Position numbers: made by a program. A stretch of 64,000 nt of DNA from an uncultured Candidatus Saccharibacteria bacterium (GTDB taxonomy: Bacteria; Patescibacteriota; Dojkabacteria; SC72). The stretch is taken from assembly GCA_964514595.1 (NCBI GenBank), contig CAZEQZ010000001.1, forward strand, positions 182,511-246,510, written 5' to 3'. Shown here one piece after another: positions 12,001 to 21,000 of this stretch; position 1 is the stretch's first letter; each line of letters opens with the position of its first letter.

Positions 12001-15000
12001 GAAGAAAAAGGCCGTGAAACATCGAGTAATTCAGAATTAAATTTAGAGATTTTTGATAAGGGAAATAGGAAGTATATAAAGTTGGTTGAGAGTTATAGAC
12101 AGAGTGGTATGTTGAGTAAGTTTGACTCCCCTGCTCTATTCATACCATTTGCTGGTAGTAGATCTGGTAAGCCTAATTCTAGAATATCAACCAACTATTT
12201 CCAGGAGAGGATTGTTGTGTATAGGAAGAAATTGGGTATACAAATACCTACTTCTGCACATAGTTTAAGGCATGGCTTTGCAACTTATTTAGCTGAGGGA
12301 GGTGCAAGTCCAGTAGCTTTGCAAGTACTTTTAGGTCATGAGAGTCTGAATACTACTACTAAGTATGTACATGCTAGTGAGAAGTTTGCGGAAGAGACTG
12401 TTAAAAAGAGTCATCCACTTAAATAGTTTATTCAATTCTTATTTATAATGGAACACTTATTACTTACTCAACTCTTTTATTCTTTATGGATGAACCCAAA
12501 TTCCCAAAAGCATCCTCAATTCTTTTGCTATTAAGGGAAGATTTGAGAACTCCTGCAATAGATATGAGTCCTTCTCCCACAAGATTTCTAAGAGCATTAA
12601 GCTCCCTCTCTTGTAATTCTAATTTACTGTTTAATTCCGTTATTTGTTGTTGTAGTTCTGCTACTGGATCTTTTTGCTCTTGATGAGCTGTTTCCTGGAC
12701 TACTTCTTCTTCTTGAGTAGATTGAATGGGAGAAACAAATTGTGTTTCTGGCTGTTGGAAATCATTATTGGGAATAAGTGGAGTTTGTGGACTCTCTGCG
12801 AAGTTCTGGTCAGTCAAGTTGTTGCTGATACTACCTGCCTCTTCTTTAGGGCCATCAGAACTTATGGAATCATTGTTAAAATCTGTTTGAAACATATTAT
12901 ATATATTATAAATTTATCCAAGTACTGTCCCTTATTCTGTTTGGACGATATTCTTATACATATCAAAATCTTGAGCCTTCTCTAGTAGTGCCTTTGCATC
13001 AGGATCTCCGTTATTGGCTTTGACAATTAAGTCTTTAGCTTCATCAACATTATGCTTAAACATGTCTAATAGATCTAGGTATATATTCTTTATTTCTTGT
13101 TGTGCATTATCCCCATATACGGTAACGGCTAGTTCGTTTAATATAGTTTCAAAATGCTCTTGAGATTTGGCTTCCTTAATTCTGTTTTCTATAACAGCTA
13201 ATTCTTCATCAGTAGATTTCTCTGTTAAGTCTTCAAATAATACATTCACAACCTCTTCAGTCATTACATTTAGTAGTTCCTCTGATTCTTTTTCTGGTAG
13301 TCCAAACTCTTTTATTTTTGCAATTATTTCTTCCATAGTTCTAAAGTTTAATTTTAATTACCAAGGATAGAAGCTGCCTTGGATAGTGCTGCTTGGACTG
13401 AGTCCAAACTTATTGCTTGGCCGTAGTTCACACTATTGCTAGCTACCTCTCCTATCACCCAACCAGCTTGTTTAGAGTTAAGATTGATACCTGCTTGTTG
13501 GAGTACCTCAGCTGCTTTCCTTTGTGCTGCAATCCATCCTTGTCCTGTGGGGTCTATTGAAAGATAGTTGCTGTTACTTGGATCCATTCCTCTTGCAATT
13601 AATCCCTCTCTCATTTGAGGAAATTCAGCAAATGAAAGACGATTGGGTAAGGAACTTGCCATTTCTCCACCTCCACCCTGAGCTATTGTGCCACCGATGC
13701 TACCTTGTGGAGTTGGTTGTGGTGATGTTCCTATACTTCCTTCATATACTTGTGATGCTGTACCTCCACTCTGGCCTACGGATGCCTCCCCTGTTGCTCC
13801 TGACAATCCAGCACCGGCTTCAGAGGCTTGAGATCCTATACCAAAGGTTTGTCTTATTTCACTCATGAAGGCTCCAGAGCGTAGGCCTAGAAGAAGGTTT
13901 GTTCCACCAAATCCAAGAGCACCTCCTGTGACGAAGGCGGAGGCTTCACCTAATCTGTTTGCCCACCAGGCTTTTCTTCTTTGGGTTCTATCATGTGCAT
14001 CTAATTGATCTTGTGTCATTGCATTTCTATCAACGTACTTCATAGCATTAGATTGACTTCTTAATCTTCCTTCCAATGTCTTTAATCCTCTGCCTGCGAG
14101 TGTACCACCCAATGTTGCAATCATCATTCCAGCTATACCGATTGGTCCTGTTGCTATACCAGCGGCTATTCCTGCTGCTACTCCACCAATTCGAACCCAT
14201 CTCTCTTTAGATGTTCTTCTTCTTTGAGCCTCGGTTTCGGCCGTGTTAATTTGTCTGTCTATGCCTTCTCTTTGCTTGATGAGATCAATAAGCTCTATCT
14301 TTTGTGCATCTGTTATATTCCCATTCTGGTACAATTCATTTAACTGATCTATCCTTCTACCAATCTCTCCAGATTGCTGTTCTAAAGGTATAGGGTTGGC
14401 TCCCTGTTGAGGTTCTTCAGCTTCTTGTTGTGCTGGTCCACCTGCTGGTGTTTCTGTCCCACCTGCTGGCGTTTCTGTCCCACCTGCTGGCGTTTCTGTC
14501 CCACCTGCTGGTGTTTCTGTCCCACCTGCTGGTGTTTCTGTCCCACCTGCTGGTGTTTCTGTCCCACCTACTGGTGGTTGTACTTGTTGTAACCTTTGTA
14601 TTGTATCTGTGAGACCTTCAATTCTAGTCATTATTTCTGTGATCCTTTGTTGTAACTCGGCATTCTGTGCAATCAAATCATTGATAATCCCTTGAAGTTC
14701 AGTGTATCTATCTTCTTCGGTGCGAGTGGTTCCTTCCTCGACAGGCGTGATATCCTCGGGTGTAGTAGTTCTTTGTGCTAAATCGGCATTCATTTCCTCT
14801 CTTGCAGCTTCAAGTTGAGTACCAGTAACATGTAGTCGGCCAGAACTGTCAGTAAATCTCATTTTATTATCTCTGTATGTTGCTCTATCAGATCCATGAG
14901 TAAGGTCATATACGGTTTGAGATCTTGTTGCTTCTATCTCGGCTATATCTTGTTCTTGGGGTAAGTCGGTATTAACATCTGCTGGTACATCAGAAGCCAC

Positions 15001-18000: not shown

Positions 18001-21000
18001 CTAAATCCAGATATATTAGCAAGGGTGAAAAATATTACGGAAAGGAGTAGTAAAAGAAGGAAGACATTTTTCTCTTTGTTAGTTTTTAATTTTTCAATAA
18101 CTAAATATCTAAACCATAAGTATCCAGTAAGTATAGTCCCAATTATGAAATGAGTAGAAATCAATAACGGTGTTATTAGAAGAAGTTTCCATAGAGGGAG
18201 ATATCTCTCCTTAAGTATAAGTATGAATAGGTATAGAGCAAATGTTTGAGGAATGAAGAATACAAAATCATACCCTCCCATGACGAAGGTAAGGAGAGAA
18301 AGCAGAGTTCCTAATTGTGACCATAGTGTACTTCGGGTTGTTTTCTTAAATATCATATATATGGGGATACTTACAACCAATGGAAATATAATGTCTAGGA
18401 CATAGAATGCTTTAATGGGGTCTGTCCCCAGAAATGTTGTAAATGATCCGAAAATAATATGGTAGAAGGTAGTATATCCGTGTTGAAGGAATAGATTAGA
18501 ACACTGTCCAGGTAGTATACAGAGTAATCCGTTGTGAAAGATTTTGTTTGGAACTGAGAGATGTTGTAGGTAGTCTAGAGCTACTACAGAATTTAGTTGT
18601 CTAATAAATATGAATACAAAGAGAGCATATATTATTGCTGGAATTAATGCAGAAATAATTTCTTTAAGTAATTCCTCAGATTCATTACCCTCCTTATTAT
18701 CTCCAATTATGAAGAGCATAAACAGGAGGTTCCAAAGGATAAGGTTAAATATTATCCCAAAAGGAAGTATTTCATTTAAAGATAGTCCTGTTAAGTTGGA
18801 GATTAGTAATTGAAGTACGAATTGAACAGGATAGTAAAGAAAAAGGAATGCAGATGTAACACCGTATAGTCTAGACTTAAATATTACTTTGGAAAGAAGG
18901 TGAGGTAATGTAAAGATTGTGAATATGAGATACCCAATAAATATGTAATTATCTCCAAAGGAGTGTAAGCCTCCTGTGAATATGGAAAATATCAAATATG
19001 CTAATATCCCAATATTTATTATTATCCCTATTACATCAAACATACCTACTCCTTACAATTAATTATCATTTTAATTTCATACTTAATTTGTAGATCATAC
19101 TCTCTGCTTAATACTACTGTTTGTTTGTTGTCTGTTATCTCGTAATCTAGTAATTCATCATATATCTCCACCCTACACCCTTTATCTTCAAAGTATATGT
19201 ATCCATCTTCTAATTTGTATTCAGTCTTGTTTGAGTAGTCCAGTTGTATATTGTATTTAAGATTTTTCTCATACAGATACGCTGTTTCAGCTATTATTTC
19301 AATATCTATTTCTTTAGAATTAATTGGTCTTAGTAGTATTTGCCTACTACTATTCTCTCCATTTTCAATATACTCTAGATATGTGTTTGTTCTAACTATT
19401 GAGTTTTCTAAATTGGAATTTTTTTGTATCTTACTATTAACACTAAATGGATTTTCTGAAAAATCAGCATTATTGTTAATATGATCATTTCTAGATGCTA
19501 TCTCAATATATTCTGTATTGGGTAGTTGTATTATTACAGATTGTCTTTCATTGATAATTTGAAAGTTTTTAGATTGTGTATATCCTAAGTAGTATGTAAC
19601 AGATAGGTATATACCTATTAATACAATTATTATGGTTAGTAGTTTAAGATAGAAGGTTTTCATATATACAATATATATGTATTTGGGATAAAAAAAAAGA
19701 TAACGTATGTTATCTTAGGGAAAAATTAGTATTTAGTTAGGGGTTTGGGTGATCTTATTATTTGTAAACTCTCAGAGAGAGGAAGATCACCCGGGTGCGG
19801 TGGAACAAAGGGGGTTACTTACAACTGTAAACGTGCACTGCTTCGCCTCGAACGAATCCATCCAGGTTAGTCAACGGAAGATCTCCGTTATAGGTATGGA
19901 ATTCATCCAGCTTTGCAAATGGGATAGCTTCGCCTTCTTGGTAAAGCCACCAATCGCATCCTCCCTGTACTTTTTTGAAGCCAATTGTGAAGTGCCCATC
20001 AGGGACCACATTGACAGTACAGGTGAGAAGATCTGAACAACTAAACTCAGATAGATAGGTGGGCTTCCTCACGGACGGTCCTGCATTCCCTCCAACGTTT
20101 CCTGCGGAAACTTCGGTAGACGGTTGATTATCTGTTACGATAATATCCGTTACTTTGTTTGCAGGAGCTGCGCTCGCGGTACTGTTGTTGTTATCTACAA
20201 CAGTAATGCTTTTCAGGGCAGAAAGTCGCCCGAAAAAGTAGACCACGACCATCAGCAAAACTAGTGCAAGGACTTGCCACCAGCTCAGTGTTTTTCCGCT
20301 ACCAACAGTTGAACGTACTTCTTCGTTTCTAGCCATTTCAATCTCCTTTTTTACTATTATTGATTAATATGTTTAAAACATTTTAAAACAAAAATTGTAA
20401 GGAACCACCCCTACACCGCATTAAACTTCTAATATCTATATGTATTAGAAACATAATGCGATGTATGAGTATCCCTTAAAAGGAGATATACCCTATTATA
20501 TTCACCGCTACTTGTATATAGATGGATTAAATAAATAATCACATAATACAAGTATATTTTAAAGAACAAGTCTCATAAAAGAGACATTAAAAAGATATAT
20601 AAATATCTCTATGAATGCGTCTTTTATATTAATATTGGAAAATTTGTATTTTAAAGAGCAGATTCTTTATTTACAATCCTACTACATTATACCATTTCGA
20701 AGTGTATAGTTCAATACTATGGGCTGGGGAGATAAATCTCCCCTACCCAATTCAAGTTAAGCTATCTTGCTATTTAAGAACTTAGAAACACCTATAAATC
20801 CTAAACCTGAAACATATGCTGAAACAGCTACTATATTAAACAATACAGCATCTGCTATACCAGTATCCTCAGGAATATGAGGACCGTATGGTGTATAACC
20901 ACCATCAGCTAATGCAGGAGATCTAAAGATGTTCAATATTCCGAAAGCAAGAATAGTTAACAAGAAGATTTTGTTTATCTTCTTCATGATATTTGTAATG

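Follow-up and report, generated by a model that had tools for sequence, protein, structure and literature searches.

Organization of the locus

The four open reading frames of the initial annotation are all present in the window, the entire 64,000-nucleotide stretch of Dojkabacteria DNA that was analyzed, and all are encoded on the minus strand. In order of transcription, they are small205 (19046..19663), mem633 (17142..19043), GT648 (15199..17145), and rep581 (13354..15099). The first three are tightly packed, with a stop-to-start gap of 2 nt between small205 and mem633 and a verified overlap of 4 nt (17142-17145) between mem633 and GT648. Thus, the small protein gene does not follow mem633, as had been stated, but precedes it. 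Similarly, because the four genes share one strand, rep581 is not immediately upstream and divergent but downstream of GT648 and co-directional with it, at a distance of 99 nt. No terminator-like site was found in this gap, which contains a promoter-like TTGACA-17-TAAATT; such matches occur overall at chance frequency. Neither the three-gene cassette nor the rest of the 64-kb window encodes a GtrA-type or Wzx-type flippase.

GT648 was proposed to be a fusion of a GT4 with a GT2 domain, and both domains are matched by Pfam. The N-terminal half, a GT4 domain of the GT-B fold (16021..17145, aa 1 to about 375), matches Glyco_transf_4 (1.4e-15, aa 24-194) and Glycos_transf_1 (5.5e-15, aa 196-343). 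In NCBIfam it has a weak match to GlcNAc-phosphatidylglycerol synthase (3e-07), and the GT4 matches are generic. The C-terminal half, a GT2 domain of the GT-A fold (15199..15993), matches Glycos_transf_2 (1e-27, aa 389-529), and the annotated motifs VIPVYNEE, DDGSKD, and DADLEYDP all occur in the translation. Judged by its sequence, the GT2 half most resembles ArnC, GtrB, and DPMS. The best NCBIfam matches are ArnC (1.2e-20), PgfS (1e-15), and AglJ (2.6e-13), the AglJ model (TIGR04182, aa 388-626) giving the longest coverage, while ArnC, GtrB (5ekp), and DPMS (5mlz) are the best matches among PDB sequences. The scores are far under all of the equivalog cut-offs of NCBIfam (73.8 bits versus 529 for ArnC). 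Moreover, no TM segment was found in the domain, so that it does not share the C-terminal TM helices that GtrB and ArnC possess. For both reasons, specificity for polyprenyl phosphate is putative, and the domain is a candidate polyprenyl-phosphate sugar synthase.

The first gene of the cassette, small205, encodes a protein anchored in the membrane by a single TM segment, with an all-beta domain outside the cytoplasm. The N-terminal TM anchor looks uncleaved (helix 2-30 in the model), so the protein is not simply an exported one, as had been described. According to the model, the domain is a beta-supersandwich of the galactose-mutarotase type, as in carbohydrate-active enzymes, where it is typical of accessory domains. 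The P1 domain of YidC, which has no sugar-related role, possesses the same beta-sandwich fold.

The GT-C fold of mem633

The product of mem633 is a polytopic protein of 633 aa, in which Kyte-Doolittle profiles show 11-13 hydrophobic segments and the AlphaFold model shows 15 membrane helices, followed by a C-terminal outer domain of about 155 aa (aa 479-633). This agrees with the size and topology described initially, but the proposed kinship with YfhO, ArnT, and PMT does not hold. The sequence has no match in Pfam, NCBIfam, or the PDB sequences; specifically, none of the Pfam and NCBIfam models for YfhO, PMT, PMT_2, ArnT, and STT3 was matched, and no homology to the PglB sequence was seen. In contrast, the AlphaFold model is confident (pLDDT 89.7), and its GT-C fold was recovered by two independent structure-comparison programs, so the expected GT-C relationship is seen in the fold and not in HMM searches. 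Foldseek returned 20 significant matches, all of them catalytic subunits of oligosaccharyltransferases (OSTs) or DPY19, followed by a sharp cliff. Based on the model, the nearest structural relatives of mem633 are the OSTs STT3, PglB, and AglB and not YfhO, ArnT, or PMT.

The conserved positions of mem633 are found only in predicted outer loops, and Lys and Arg residues number about 14 in the inner loops versus 3 in the outer loops. The invariant residues of the outer face are D157 (in the EL1-equivalent loop), D217, H298, E350 (in a long outer loop), and the SDPxTQ motif of the C-terminal domain. The wider family retains the D, H, PQ, H, E, Y..K, and SDPxTQ positions. In comparison with STT3, PglB, and AglB (CAZy GT66, Pfam STT3), to which no sequence homology is detectable, mem633 lacks the WWDYG and DK/MI motifs and conserves SDPxTQ instead. 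Its C-terminal domain is much smaller, and it possesses 15 predicted helices versus 13, the extras being an N-terminal extension of four TM helices. In shorter family members, which are missing this extension, a single TM helix precedes (L/V)NWDxxEH, as is canonical for GT-C enzymes.

Conservation of the cassette and variability of rep581

In collinear Dojkabacteria loci, small205, mem633, and GT648 are adjacent wherever the contig is long enough, and all three are present in 18 loci. GT4 and GT-C genes also occur together in rearranged contexts (L024, L025, L028, L029, L030, L034, and L036), with a counterpart of small205 detected in three. In L038, L041, and L042, where the GT-C identity is only about 24%, the small protein, GT-C, GT4, and GT2 are encoded by separate genes; the stand-alone GT2 genes beside the GT-C gene in these loci and in L036 encode 237-263 aa. 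In distant loci, the GT-C gene likewise has a stand-alone GT4 gene as its partner, and of the loci with flanks examined, only L023 has no GT4 gene beside the GT-C gene. In distant relatives, a Wzx-type flippase gene (PF01943) adjoins the cassette, and L038 also contains an epimerase gene. Sortase and surface-protein genes are close by in many loci.

The acidic repeat protein rep581 is far less constant. The tandem repeat itself is real, with 6.6 copies of a 21-nt unit (14438..14576; TRF, 97% matches, score 257), although a regex count finds six perfect GGTETPA units (aa 178-219) and not the seven reported. Contrary to the initial description, the protein is not recognizable as secreted. No signal peptide was found, and the acidic N-terminus is without a hydrophobic signal, with a maximum KD19 of -0.69 over the first 40 aa. 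Its sole strong hydrophobic element is a Gly/Ala-rich hairpin of 36 aa (14092..14199, aa 301-336) with TGP at its central turn and flanks rich in Lys and Arg on both sides. A hairpin of 20-41 aa is present in all 11 family members analyzed, 10 of which have 33-41 aa and a central Pro or Gly-rich turn; across the 11, Lys and Arg number 3-7 in the preceding 20 aa and 1-7 after. Since the repeats precede this hairpin and both of its flanks are positively charged, the positive-inside rule predicts that they are in the cytoplasm.

Homologues of rep581 align only over aa 240-470, with about 35% identity. Of the 20 collinear Dojkabacteria loci with a GT648 match, 7 have such a homologue in the slot. 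The slot is hypervariable, with proteins of 277-1739 aa, and in L019 it contains only a TM-less protein of 277 aa. In an exact-tandem scan, GGTETPA was found in this window only, and Thr/Pro repeats of other sequence were found in only two homologues. Low-complexity Thr/Pro-rich stretches do occur in other proteins of the slot, such as PTPTPV in L001, PGTPEAPG in L005, and VTPVTPD in L009. In less related genomes, no rep581 match was found beside the cassette, which is flanked by other genes. Moreover, the whole gyrA...ruvB block is collinear across the Dojkabacteria genomes compared, so the adjacency of rep581 to the cassette carries no specific weight. Of the anticipated synteny, therefore, the GT and GT-C genes recur while the repeat protein is mostly not kept. 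Overall, rep581 is probably a neighbor outside the system and not its dedicated target.

A candidate system for transmembrane glycosylation

The region 19663..15199 (minus strand) probably encodes a conserved multi-component transmembrane glycosylation cassette of the Dojkabacteria and related candidate-phyla-radiation (CPR) bacteria, at a probability of about 0.7. This reading combines the established domain identities of GT648, the GT-C fold and topology of mem633, the fold of small205, the gene packing (the 4-nt overlap and 2-nt gap), the co-conservation of the genes, and published precedent. Multi-component (formerly 'three-component') systems pair a cytoplasmic GT-A enzyme with a Wzx flippase and a GT-C enzyme, and a second protein has been speculated to bind the acceptor (PMC8035078). 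The closest are GtrA/B/C, CsbB-GtcA-YfhO, and especially GacI-GacJ-GacK-GacL, in which an ArnC/GtrB-type GT2 is likewise encoded beside a polytopic GT-C with conserved acidic residues in its outer loops (PMC8035078). The GT2 of GT648 resembles GacI in lacking TM helices, the flippase of the relatives is of the Wzx type like GacK, and, as in Gac-type systems, there is an extra small membrane protein. However, mem633 belongs to none of the YfhO, PMT_2, and GtrC types and carries a C-terminal domain like that of OSTs, small205 differs from GacJ and GtrA in being single-pass with a large outer beta-sandwich, and the window has no flippase gene. The GT2 domain is also fused to a GT4, for which the classical scheme has no place. 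This lack of a place for the GT4 was counted against the cassette reading, as were the low equivalog scores of the GT2, the missing flippase, and the likeness of small205 to YidC P1.

In the proposed order of events, the GT2 domain would transfer a sugar to polyprenyl phosphate from a nucleotide-sugar donor at the cytoplasmic face, as suggested by its likeness to ArnC, GtrB, DPMS, and AglJ. The fused GT4 would act in the same pathway, because of the fusion and because GT4 accompanies the GT-C gene more constantly than any other partner. Most simply, it would add a further sugar to the lipid-linked sugar; alternatively, it may make a primer, glycolipid or glycan, that becomes the acceptor in a later step. 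The lipid-linked glycan would then be flipped; the cassette itself has no flippase gene, and a Wzx-type gene is found alongside in distant relatives. On the outer face, mem633 would move the glycan to an extracytoplasmic acceptor, with D157, D217, H298, E350, and SDPxTQ as the putative active site. The small205 protein may be a glycan-binding subunit, for acceptor or product, possibly in a physical complex with mem633.

More specific functions are each unlikely, though not equally so. One is the synthesis of a lipoglycan or glycolipid, as for mycobacterial PIM/LM/LAM: the GT4 would act in the cytoplasm to glycosylate a membrane lipid, polyprenyl-phosphate sugar would come from the GT2, and the GT-C would extend the flipped glycolipid outside while small205 holds the growing glycan. 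The near-constant GT4 partner, the inclusion of lipid glycosyltransferases in the GT4 family together with the weak GlcNAc-phosphatidylglycerol synthase match, and the carbohydrate-binding-type fold of small205 make this a tentative possibility. However, the GT4 matches are generic, genes for lipid-anchor synthesis are absent from the cassette, and PimE-type enzymes lack an OST-like C-terminal domain. Somewhat more doubtful is that mem633 is a functional analogue of STT3/PglB/AglB, transferring en bloc a short polyprenyl-phosphate-linked glycan, started by the AglJ-like GT2 and extended by the GT4, to envelope proteins, with SDPxTQ replacing WWDYG in peptide recognition. The exclusive Foldseek matches to OSTs and DPY19 and the long AglJ coverage are consistent with this, as are the nearby sortase and surface-protein genes and, as in OSTs, an invariant Asp in an EL1-like loop and an invariant Glu in the long outer loop (D56 and E319 in PglB). 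Archaeal Agl clusters combine the GT2 AglJ, further glycosyltransferases, the Wzx-like flippase AglR, and AglB, and the GT2, GT4, OST-fold transferase, Wzx-type flippase, and epimerase genes of the cassette and its relatives resemble these and the Campylobacter pgl clusters in content. Nevertheless, the host is bacterial, mem633 has neither the WWDYG and DK/MI motifs nor sequence homology to AglB, PglB, or the Pfam STT3 model, and a mutarotase-like partner points to glycan rather than peptide binding.

Dedicated O-glycosylation of the adjacent TETPAGG protein, with the GT-C acting on Thr/Pro repeats outside the cell, is improbable. The co-directional neighbor without an intervening terminator-like site, the Thr/Pro-rich stretches in several proteins of the slot, and the PgfS match favor it, and GT2/GT-C pairs acting on extracytoplasmic S/T-rich disordered regions have precedent in the GtrB/PgtC2 and PgfS/PgfM1/PgfM2/PgfE systems of streptococci, which modify low-complexity Ser/Thr-rich linkers in membrane-associated proteins (PMC12041528) and are of just the type envisaged initially. 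In these systems, however, the target regions have been shown to lie outside the cytoplasm, and the enzymes modify many proteins, not the product of an adjacent gene (PMC12041528). In contrast, the predicted location of the rep581 repeats is cytoplasmic, the GT-C belongs to another family, and the promoter-like site, the hypervariable slot, the uninformative adjacency in a collinear block, and the absence of rep581-like proteins wherever the cassette is in another context all argue against a dedicated link. Cytoplasmic repeats and the GT4 domain encoded immediately upstream would instead suit direct O-glycosylation of rep581 by the GT4, the GT-C being unrelated to that step. The GT4 enzymes GtfA/GtfB glycosylate serine-rich-repeat adhesins inside the cell in this way. 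However, the presence of the GT4 tracks that of the GT-C gene and the small protein, not that of the variable neighbor, GtfB-like partner and accessory Sec genes are lacking, and the GGTETPA repeat is found in this genome only, which makes this function highly improbable.

Among acceptors for the cassette, in a rough apportionment, a cell-envelope glycopolymer or glycolipid has slightly less than an even chance, envelope proteins in general somewhat less, and the TETPAGG protein specifically a slim chance at best. The glycosylation module proposed initially is thus supported, while its dedicated glycoprotein link is not. Overall, mem633 is a member of a new, undescribed GT-C family, and the cassette is very likely a three-gene machine by which a lipid-linked sugar is built inside the cell and attached to something outside.

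Composition and conservation of the gene cassette

The cassette genes and rep581, the gene for the TETPAGG/GGTETPA-repeat protein beside them, all lie on the minus strand in the ORF listing. The first in transcription order is small205 (19663..19046), which encodes the anchored beta-sandwich protein. It is followed after a 2-nt gap by mem633 (19043..17142), the gene for the large membrane enzyme, which in turn overlaps GT648 (17145..15199), the gene for a GT4 and GT2 fusion, by 4 nt (ATGA). After a further 99-nt gap comes rep581 (15099..13354), and then the genes for two small acidic proteins, p134 (13336..12932) and p143 (12895..12464). 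The initial annotation had reversed this order, placing the repeat protein immediately upstream and divergent and the small exported protein after the membrane enzyme, while on the minus strand rep581 comes after GT648 and small205 precedes mem633. The 99-nt gap holds a promoter-like hexamer pair, a kind of match that occurs at chance frequency: the scan found 38 promoter-like sites against a shuffle expectation of 36.9 and eight terminator-like sites against 4.3. The organism is a low-GC (about 35%) Candidatus Dojkabacteria (WS6) bacterium, and Dojkabacteria MAGs are the source of the relatives of mem633.

In a comparison of 37 genome loci, the cassette is part of a block that is collinear across Dojkabacteria and runs gyrA, vanY, sortase, p82 (an 82-aa ORF), a variable slot, small205, mem633, GT648, a large variable protein, p134, xer, mem271 and ruvB. 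In less related genomes, where the context is scrambled, a GT4-only gene still adjoins the GT-C gene (L024, L025, L028, L029, L030, L032, L034, L035 and L036). Of these loci, L024 and L025 have a detected counterpart of small205, while L036 has a 216-aa gene at the corresponding position. Such genomes often also carry a sortase with its tiny substrate, as well as a Wzx-type flippase (PF01943; L024, L025, L030, L033, L034 and L036). Moreover, in a far branch with GT-C proteins of about 24% identity, each of the four parts has its own gene and these genes are adjacent, ordered GT2, small, GT-C and GT4 in L041, small, GT-C, GT2 and GT4 in L042, and GT2 (divergent), small, GT-C and GT4 plus an epimerase in L038. 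The unit thus consists of four functions, namely a small anchor protein, a GT-C enzyme, a GT4 and a GT2, of which the last two are fused in the lineage of the window.

No small ORF with three to four transmembrane (TM) helices, as expected of a GtrA-type flippase, occurs in 12.4-22.5 kb, and neither tblastn with the Wzx proteins of relatives nor a TM-count screen found a GtrA-like or Wzx-like ORF in the 64-kb window. The sole exporter-like gene in the window that might conceivably flip a lipid-linked sugar encodes an MsbA/PglK-type half ABC exporter (49421..51217, plus strand; ABC_membrane and ABC_tran) 30 kb from the cassette, to which no evidence links it. Another conceivable transporter or flippase candidate is mem271 (9768..10583, plus strand), a 271-aa protein with about eight TM helices and no Pfam match, whose gene overlaps ruvB by 8 nt and is paired with it in all collinear loci.

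Fold and conserved residues of the membrane enzyme

The membrane enzyme mem633 belongs to a new sequence family within the known GT-C superfamily, outside all described sequence families. Neither mem633 nor 83 relatives had a Pfam, NCBIfam or PDB sequence match. Specifically, no Pfam family recurred at E<=5 among 35 close relatives or at E<=0.1 among 48 distant ones, and a PDB-sequence profile search with the family alignment gave no matches at E<=10. An hhalign comparison of the same alignment with Campylobacter lari PglB gave a probability of 0.3%, indicating no homology; the C. lari sequence was read from an alignment made after a C. jejuni-like PglB sequence had been validated against 5OGL. 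Searches of Pfam, NCBIfam and PHROGs with mem633, small205, rep581 and the neighbouring small ORFs returned nothing useful. A match to EpsG in one of 35 members (6e-05) was discounted, since the fold matches included no structure of Wzy, WaaL or SEDS. A word-indexed search found 75 homologues, none with a Pfam domain, and the only source-named entry among them was a Candidatus Dojkabacteria MAG. When 1.84 billion cluster representatives were searched exhaustively with a profile, only 229 were retrieved at E<=1e-3. No description of the family was found in the searched literature on glycosyltransferases, oligosaccharyltransferases (OSTs) or GT-C enzymes in Dojkabacteria and CPR bacteria.

The superfamily assignment is made at the level of the fold. 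A confident AlphaFold2 model built from 35 sequences (pLDDT 89.7, pTM 0.91) superposes on solved GT-C enzymes, and two structure-comparison programs concur on the fold. All 20 Foldseek matches with E<=3e-3 were to STT3, PglB, AglB and DPY19, with about 600 columns aligned, after which the matches dropped sharply to E>0.16. For ArnT and the Pmt enzymes, the match is at the fold level only. The model also has a C-terminal extracytoplasmic alpha/beta domain of the OST type. The architecture is nearest to that of the OSTs. The GT-C fold proposed in the initial annotation is therefore borne out by the model, while the suggested families YfhO, ArnT and PMT are not: HMMs for YfhO, PMT, PMT_2 and ArnT found no Pfam or NCBIfam match in mem633, and none at E<=5 across 35 members.

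In the model, onto which conservation was mapped, mem633 has 15 membrane helices, its N-terminus lying inside and its C-terminus outside, a topology in which about 14 K/R residues fall in short inner loops and three in outer loops. Every invariant position is located on the predicted outer face. The long outer loop 147-208 carries R148, S152, D157, Y158, H161, Y190 and H195 together with the Cys pair C175/C181. Further invariant residues are D217, P265-Q266, H298, Y424 and K427, as well as E350 within a 36-residue outer loop. In the C-terminal domain, S513-D514-P515 and Q518 are invariant within the motif (V/I)SDP(Y/A)TQ (aa 512-518), which follows the last TM helix. The D, H, PQ, H, E, Y..K and SDPxTQ positions are also conserved in the distant half of the family, where mean identity is 29%.

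D157, within ALDYLQH, is an acidic residue of the kind found in the first outer loop of GT-C enzymes. Four short family members have a single N-terminal TM helix followed directly by (L/V)NWDxx(E/H)H, which is the canonical GT-C order of TM1, EL1 and Asp. By comparison with these members, mem633 carries a four-helix N-terminal extension, which explains why the D157 loop comes after helix 5, and we infer that helix 121-146 is the equivalent of GT-C TM1. The WWDYG motif was sought at the start of the C-terminal domain, and no WWD occurs anywhere in mem633. SDPxTQ may be regarded as its counterpart by positional analogy only, in that a strand, the motif and a helix follow soon after the last TM helix.

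The fused glycosyltransferase

The Pfam HMM search confirmed the fusion of GT4 and GT2 in GT648, with Glyco_transf_4 at aa 24-194, Glycos_transf_1 at aa 196-343 and Glycos_transf_2 at aa 389-529 (1e-27), and the GT2 motifs named in the initial annotation are present in the translation. The best NCBIfam match of the GT2 half was ArnC (1.2e-20), followed by PgaC, PgfS, GpgS and AglJ, of which AglJ gave the longest coverage (aa 388-626). Among solved structures, the top matches by sequence were ArnC, GtrB (5ekp) and DPMS (5mlz). The DxD motif is present as DAD in TQDADLEYDP, and the best matches fall within the GtrB/ArnC/DPM1-type subgroup. No NCBIfam equivalog cut-off was reached, with 73.8 bits against 529 for ArnC and the others also far short. 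GT648 lacks any hydrophobic segment, and with it the TM helices that GtrB and ArnC have at the C-terminus. In this respect it differs from GtrB and ArnC and resembles GacI, a relative without TM helices (PMC8035078). Because such relatives exist, the absence of TM helices does not exclude GtrB/ArnC-type activity (PMC8035078). It is a reasonable inference from sequence that the GT2 domain is polyprenyl-phosphate sugar synthase-like, and, judged by this context of a gene overlapping mem633, a polyprenyl-phosphate-linked sugar may be the donor for the membrane enzyme.

Acceptor candidates, proposed pathway and significance

Just upstream of the cassette, the gene for a VanY-type D-Ala-D-Ala carboxypeptidase (21724..22530, minus strand; 1.4e-38) overlaps that of a sortase (21077..21727, minus strand; Pfam Sortase, 6.6e-10) by 4 nt. 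The two genes stay paired across the Dojkabacteria loci, as a unit for wall anchoring or wall remodelling might. The sortase gene is adjoined by p82 (20757..21005, minus strand), which probably starts in reality at the ATG of MKKINK. Its product combines a signal peptide with the core ADG(G)Y(T/S)PYGPHIPE(D/E)TG, a TM helix and a K-rich tail, and the core motif is nearly invariant in 17 related loci. The arrangement is that of an LPXTG-like sorting signal, here carried by a protein that would be only about 13-15 residues long once mature. Cys-rich variants with a C-terminal PDTG motif (PIPDTG, ICPDTG) lie beside the sortase in L030 and L036, and sortase, mini-substrate and GT-C cassette remain within a few kb of one another even in rearranged genomes. 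A second variable slot (19664..20756, minus strand) separates p82 from small205. In this genome it includes an ORF (19815..20336) for a single-pass protein of 173 aa whose outer domain contains Cys, and a few relatives have no more than recognisable fragments of it. On the minus strand of this slot, terminator-like hairpins occur at 20415..20396 and 20585..20570. In L025, three tandem paralogous genes (13545..16607, minus strand), whose 319-343-aa products have an N-terminal hydrophobic segment and no Pfam match, sit between the sortase and the mini-substrate and Wzx genes and may encode surface proteins that accompany this form of the module.

The repeat protein rep581 had been proposed as the dedicated acceptor of the cassette, a role that now appears quite improbable. 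It contains six perfect GGTETPA units (aa 178-219), encoded by 6.6 copies of a 21-nt repeat, and lacks a signal peptide. Its sole strongly hydrophobic element is a 36-aa Gly/Ala-rich segment (aa 301-336) with a central TGP turn, flanked by six K/R in the 20 aa before and five in the 20 aa after. Because both flanks of this hairpin are K/R-rich, the heuristic positive-inside rule places both in the cytoplasm and the repeats would be inside the cell, unlike the S/T-rich disordered regions of streptococcal glycoproteins, which lie outside the membrane. A comparable hairpin was present in the ten homologues analysed, most of which also have K/R-rich flanks. The few homologues align only over aa 240-470, with about 35% identity. 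The slot that follows GT648 is variable, encoding proteins of 277 to 1739 aa, several with Thr/Pro-rich tracts at varying positions, and in L019 it lacks a rep581-type protein. Outside the collinear block, a rep581-type neighbour of the cassette was never found, and the adjacency of GT648 and rep581 is concluded to be inherited synteny. The rep581-type proteins of slots L001-L027 form a fast-evolving, acidic family without signal peptides, with a coiled coil, low-complexity Thr/Pro tracts and a Gly/Ala hairpin of 33-41 aa, and several share an N-terminal motif such as GxYDxxxNGxExYxxPNGM. Small acidic helical p134-like proteins (weak DUF6912 match) are always beside them, sometimes on both sides, as if a membrane-hairpin protein were accompanied by a chaperone-like partner.

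The preferred reading of the cassette is a transmembrane glycosylation pathway with several components, similar to those covered in a review (PMC8035078). The GT2 domain of GT648 would charge polyprenyl phosphate, and the GT4 domain would act in the same pathway by extending the lipid-linked sugar or priming the acceptor. Some flippase would then move the lipid-linked product outward, where mem633 would transfer the glycan on the outer side of the membrane, assisted by small205 through glycan binding. Concerning the acceptor, the OST-like architecture of mem633 and the nearby sortase and surface-protein genes favour a protein, while the mutarotase-like small205, the universal presence of GT4 and what is known of most bacterial pairs of GT2 and GT-C favour a wall polymer or glycolipid.

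The protein alternative can be stated more specifically. The mem633 family might be an unrecognised, CPR-restricted bacterial OST-like lineage that moves a short polyprenyl-phosphate-linked glycan en bloc onto envelope proteins, with the fused AglJ-like GT2 and GT4 making the glycan, SDPxTQ replacing WWDYG and the mutarotase-like beta-sandwich as a dedicated subunit. This proposal is considered unlikely as a whole. Its candidate targets would be the tiny sortase-anchored peptide, pilins or other nearby surface proteins. The single conserved N-x-S/T sequon of small205, N145-K-T, was considered as a possible mark of an OST target. As an acceptor candidate, the sortase-anchored mini-peptide has a suggestive association with the cassette in the Dojkabacteria-like loci, but L038, L041 and L042 have no sortase among their listed Pfam matches. 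Pilins are classic glycosylation targets in other bacteria. At a distance of about 10 kb from the cassette, a type IV pilus cluster (28722..34862, plus strand) encodes a pilin that carries an N-methylation motif, a prepilin peptidase, a T2SSF platform protein and two PilB/PilT-like ATPases (T2SSE).

It has been speculated that GT-C enzymes of small size depend on another protein to bind the acceptor (PMC8035078), and the GT4-GT2 fusion together with the small205 beta-sandwich agrees with this idea. The mem633 family is new as a sequence family, but its superfamily is known, as is the kind of glycosylation system in which it would work, and it is the composition of this system that is unusual. 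CPR episymbionts depend on surface contacts, and to our knowledge the envelopes of CPR bacteria (Patescibacteria) are almost unknown biochemically. The cassette is kept in the recovered Dojkabacteria genomes and recurs as separate genes in other metagenome-assembly contigs, and it therefore points to a specific, testable envelope glycoconjugate. In addition, mem633 adds to the GT-C superfamily a sequence family that Pfam and NCBIfam do not cover. Its architecture, nearest to the OSTs, makes the family a natural test of how far OST-like machinery reaches in bacteria, and of whether the C-terminal domain recognises acceptors without WWDYG.
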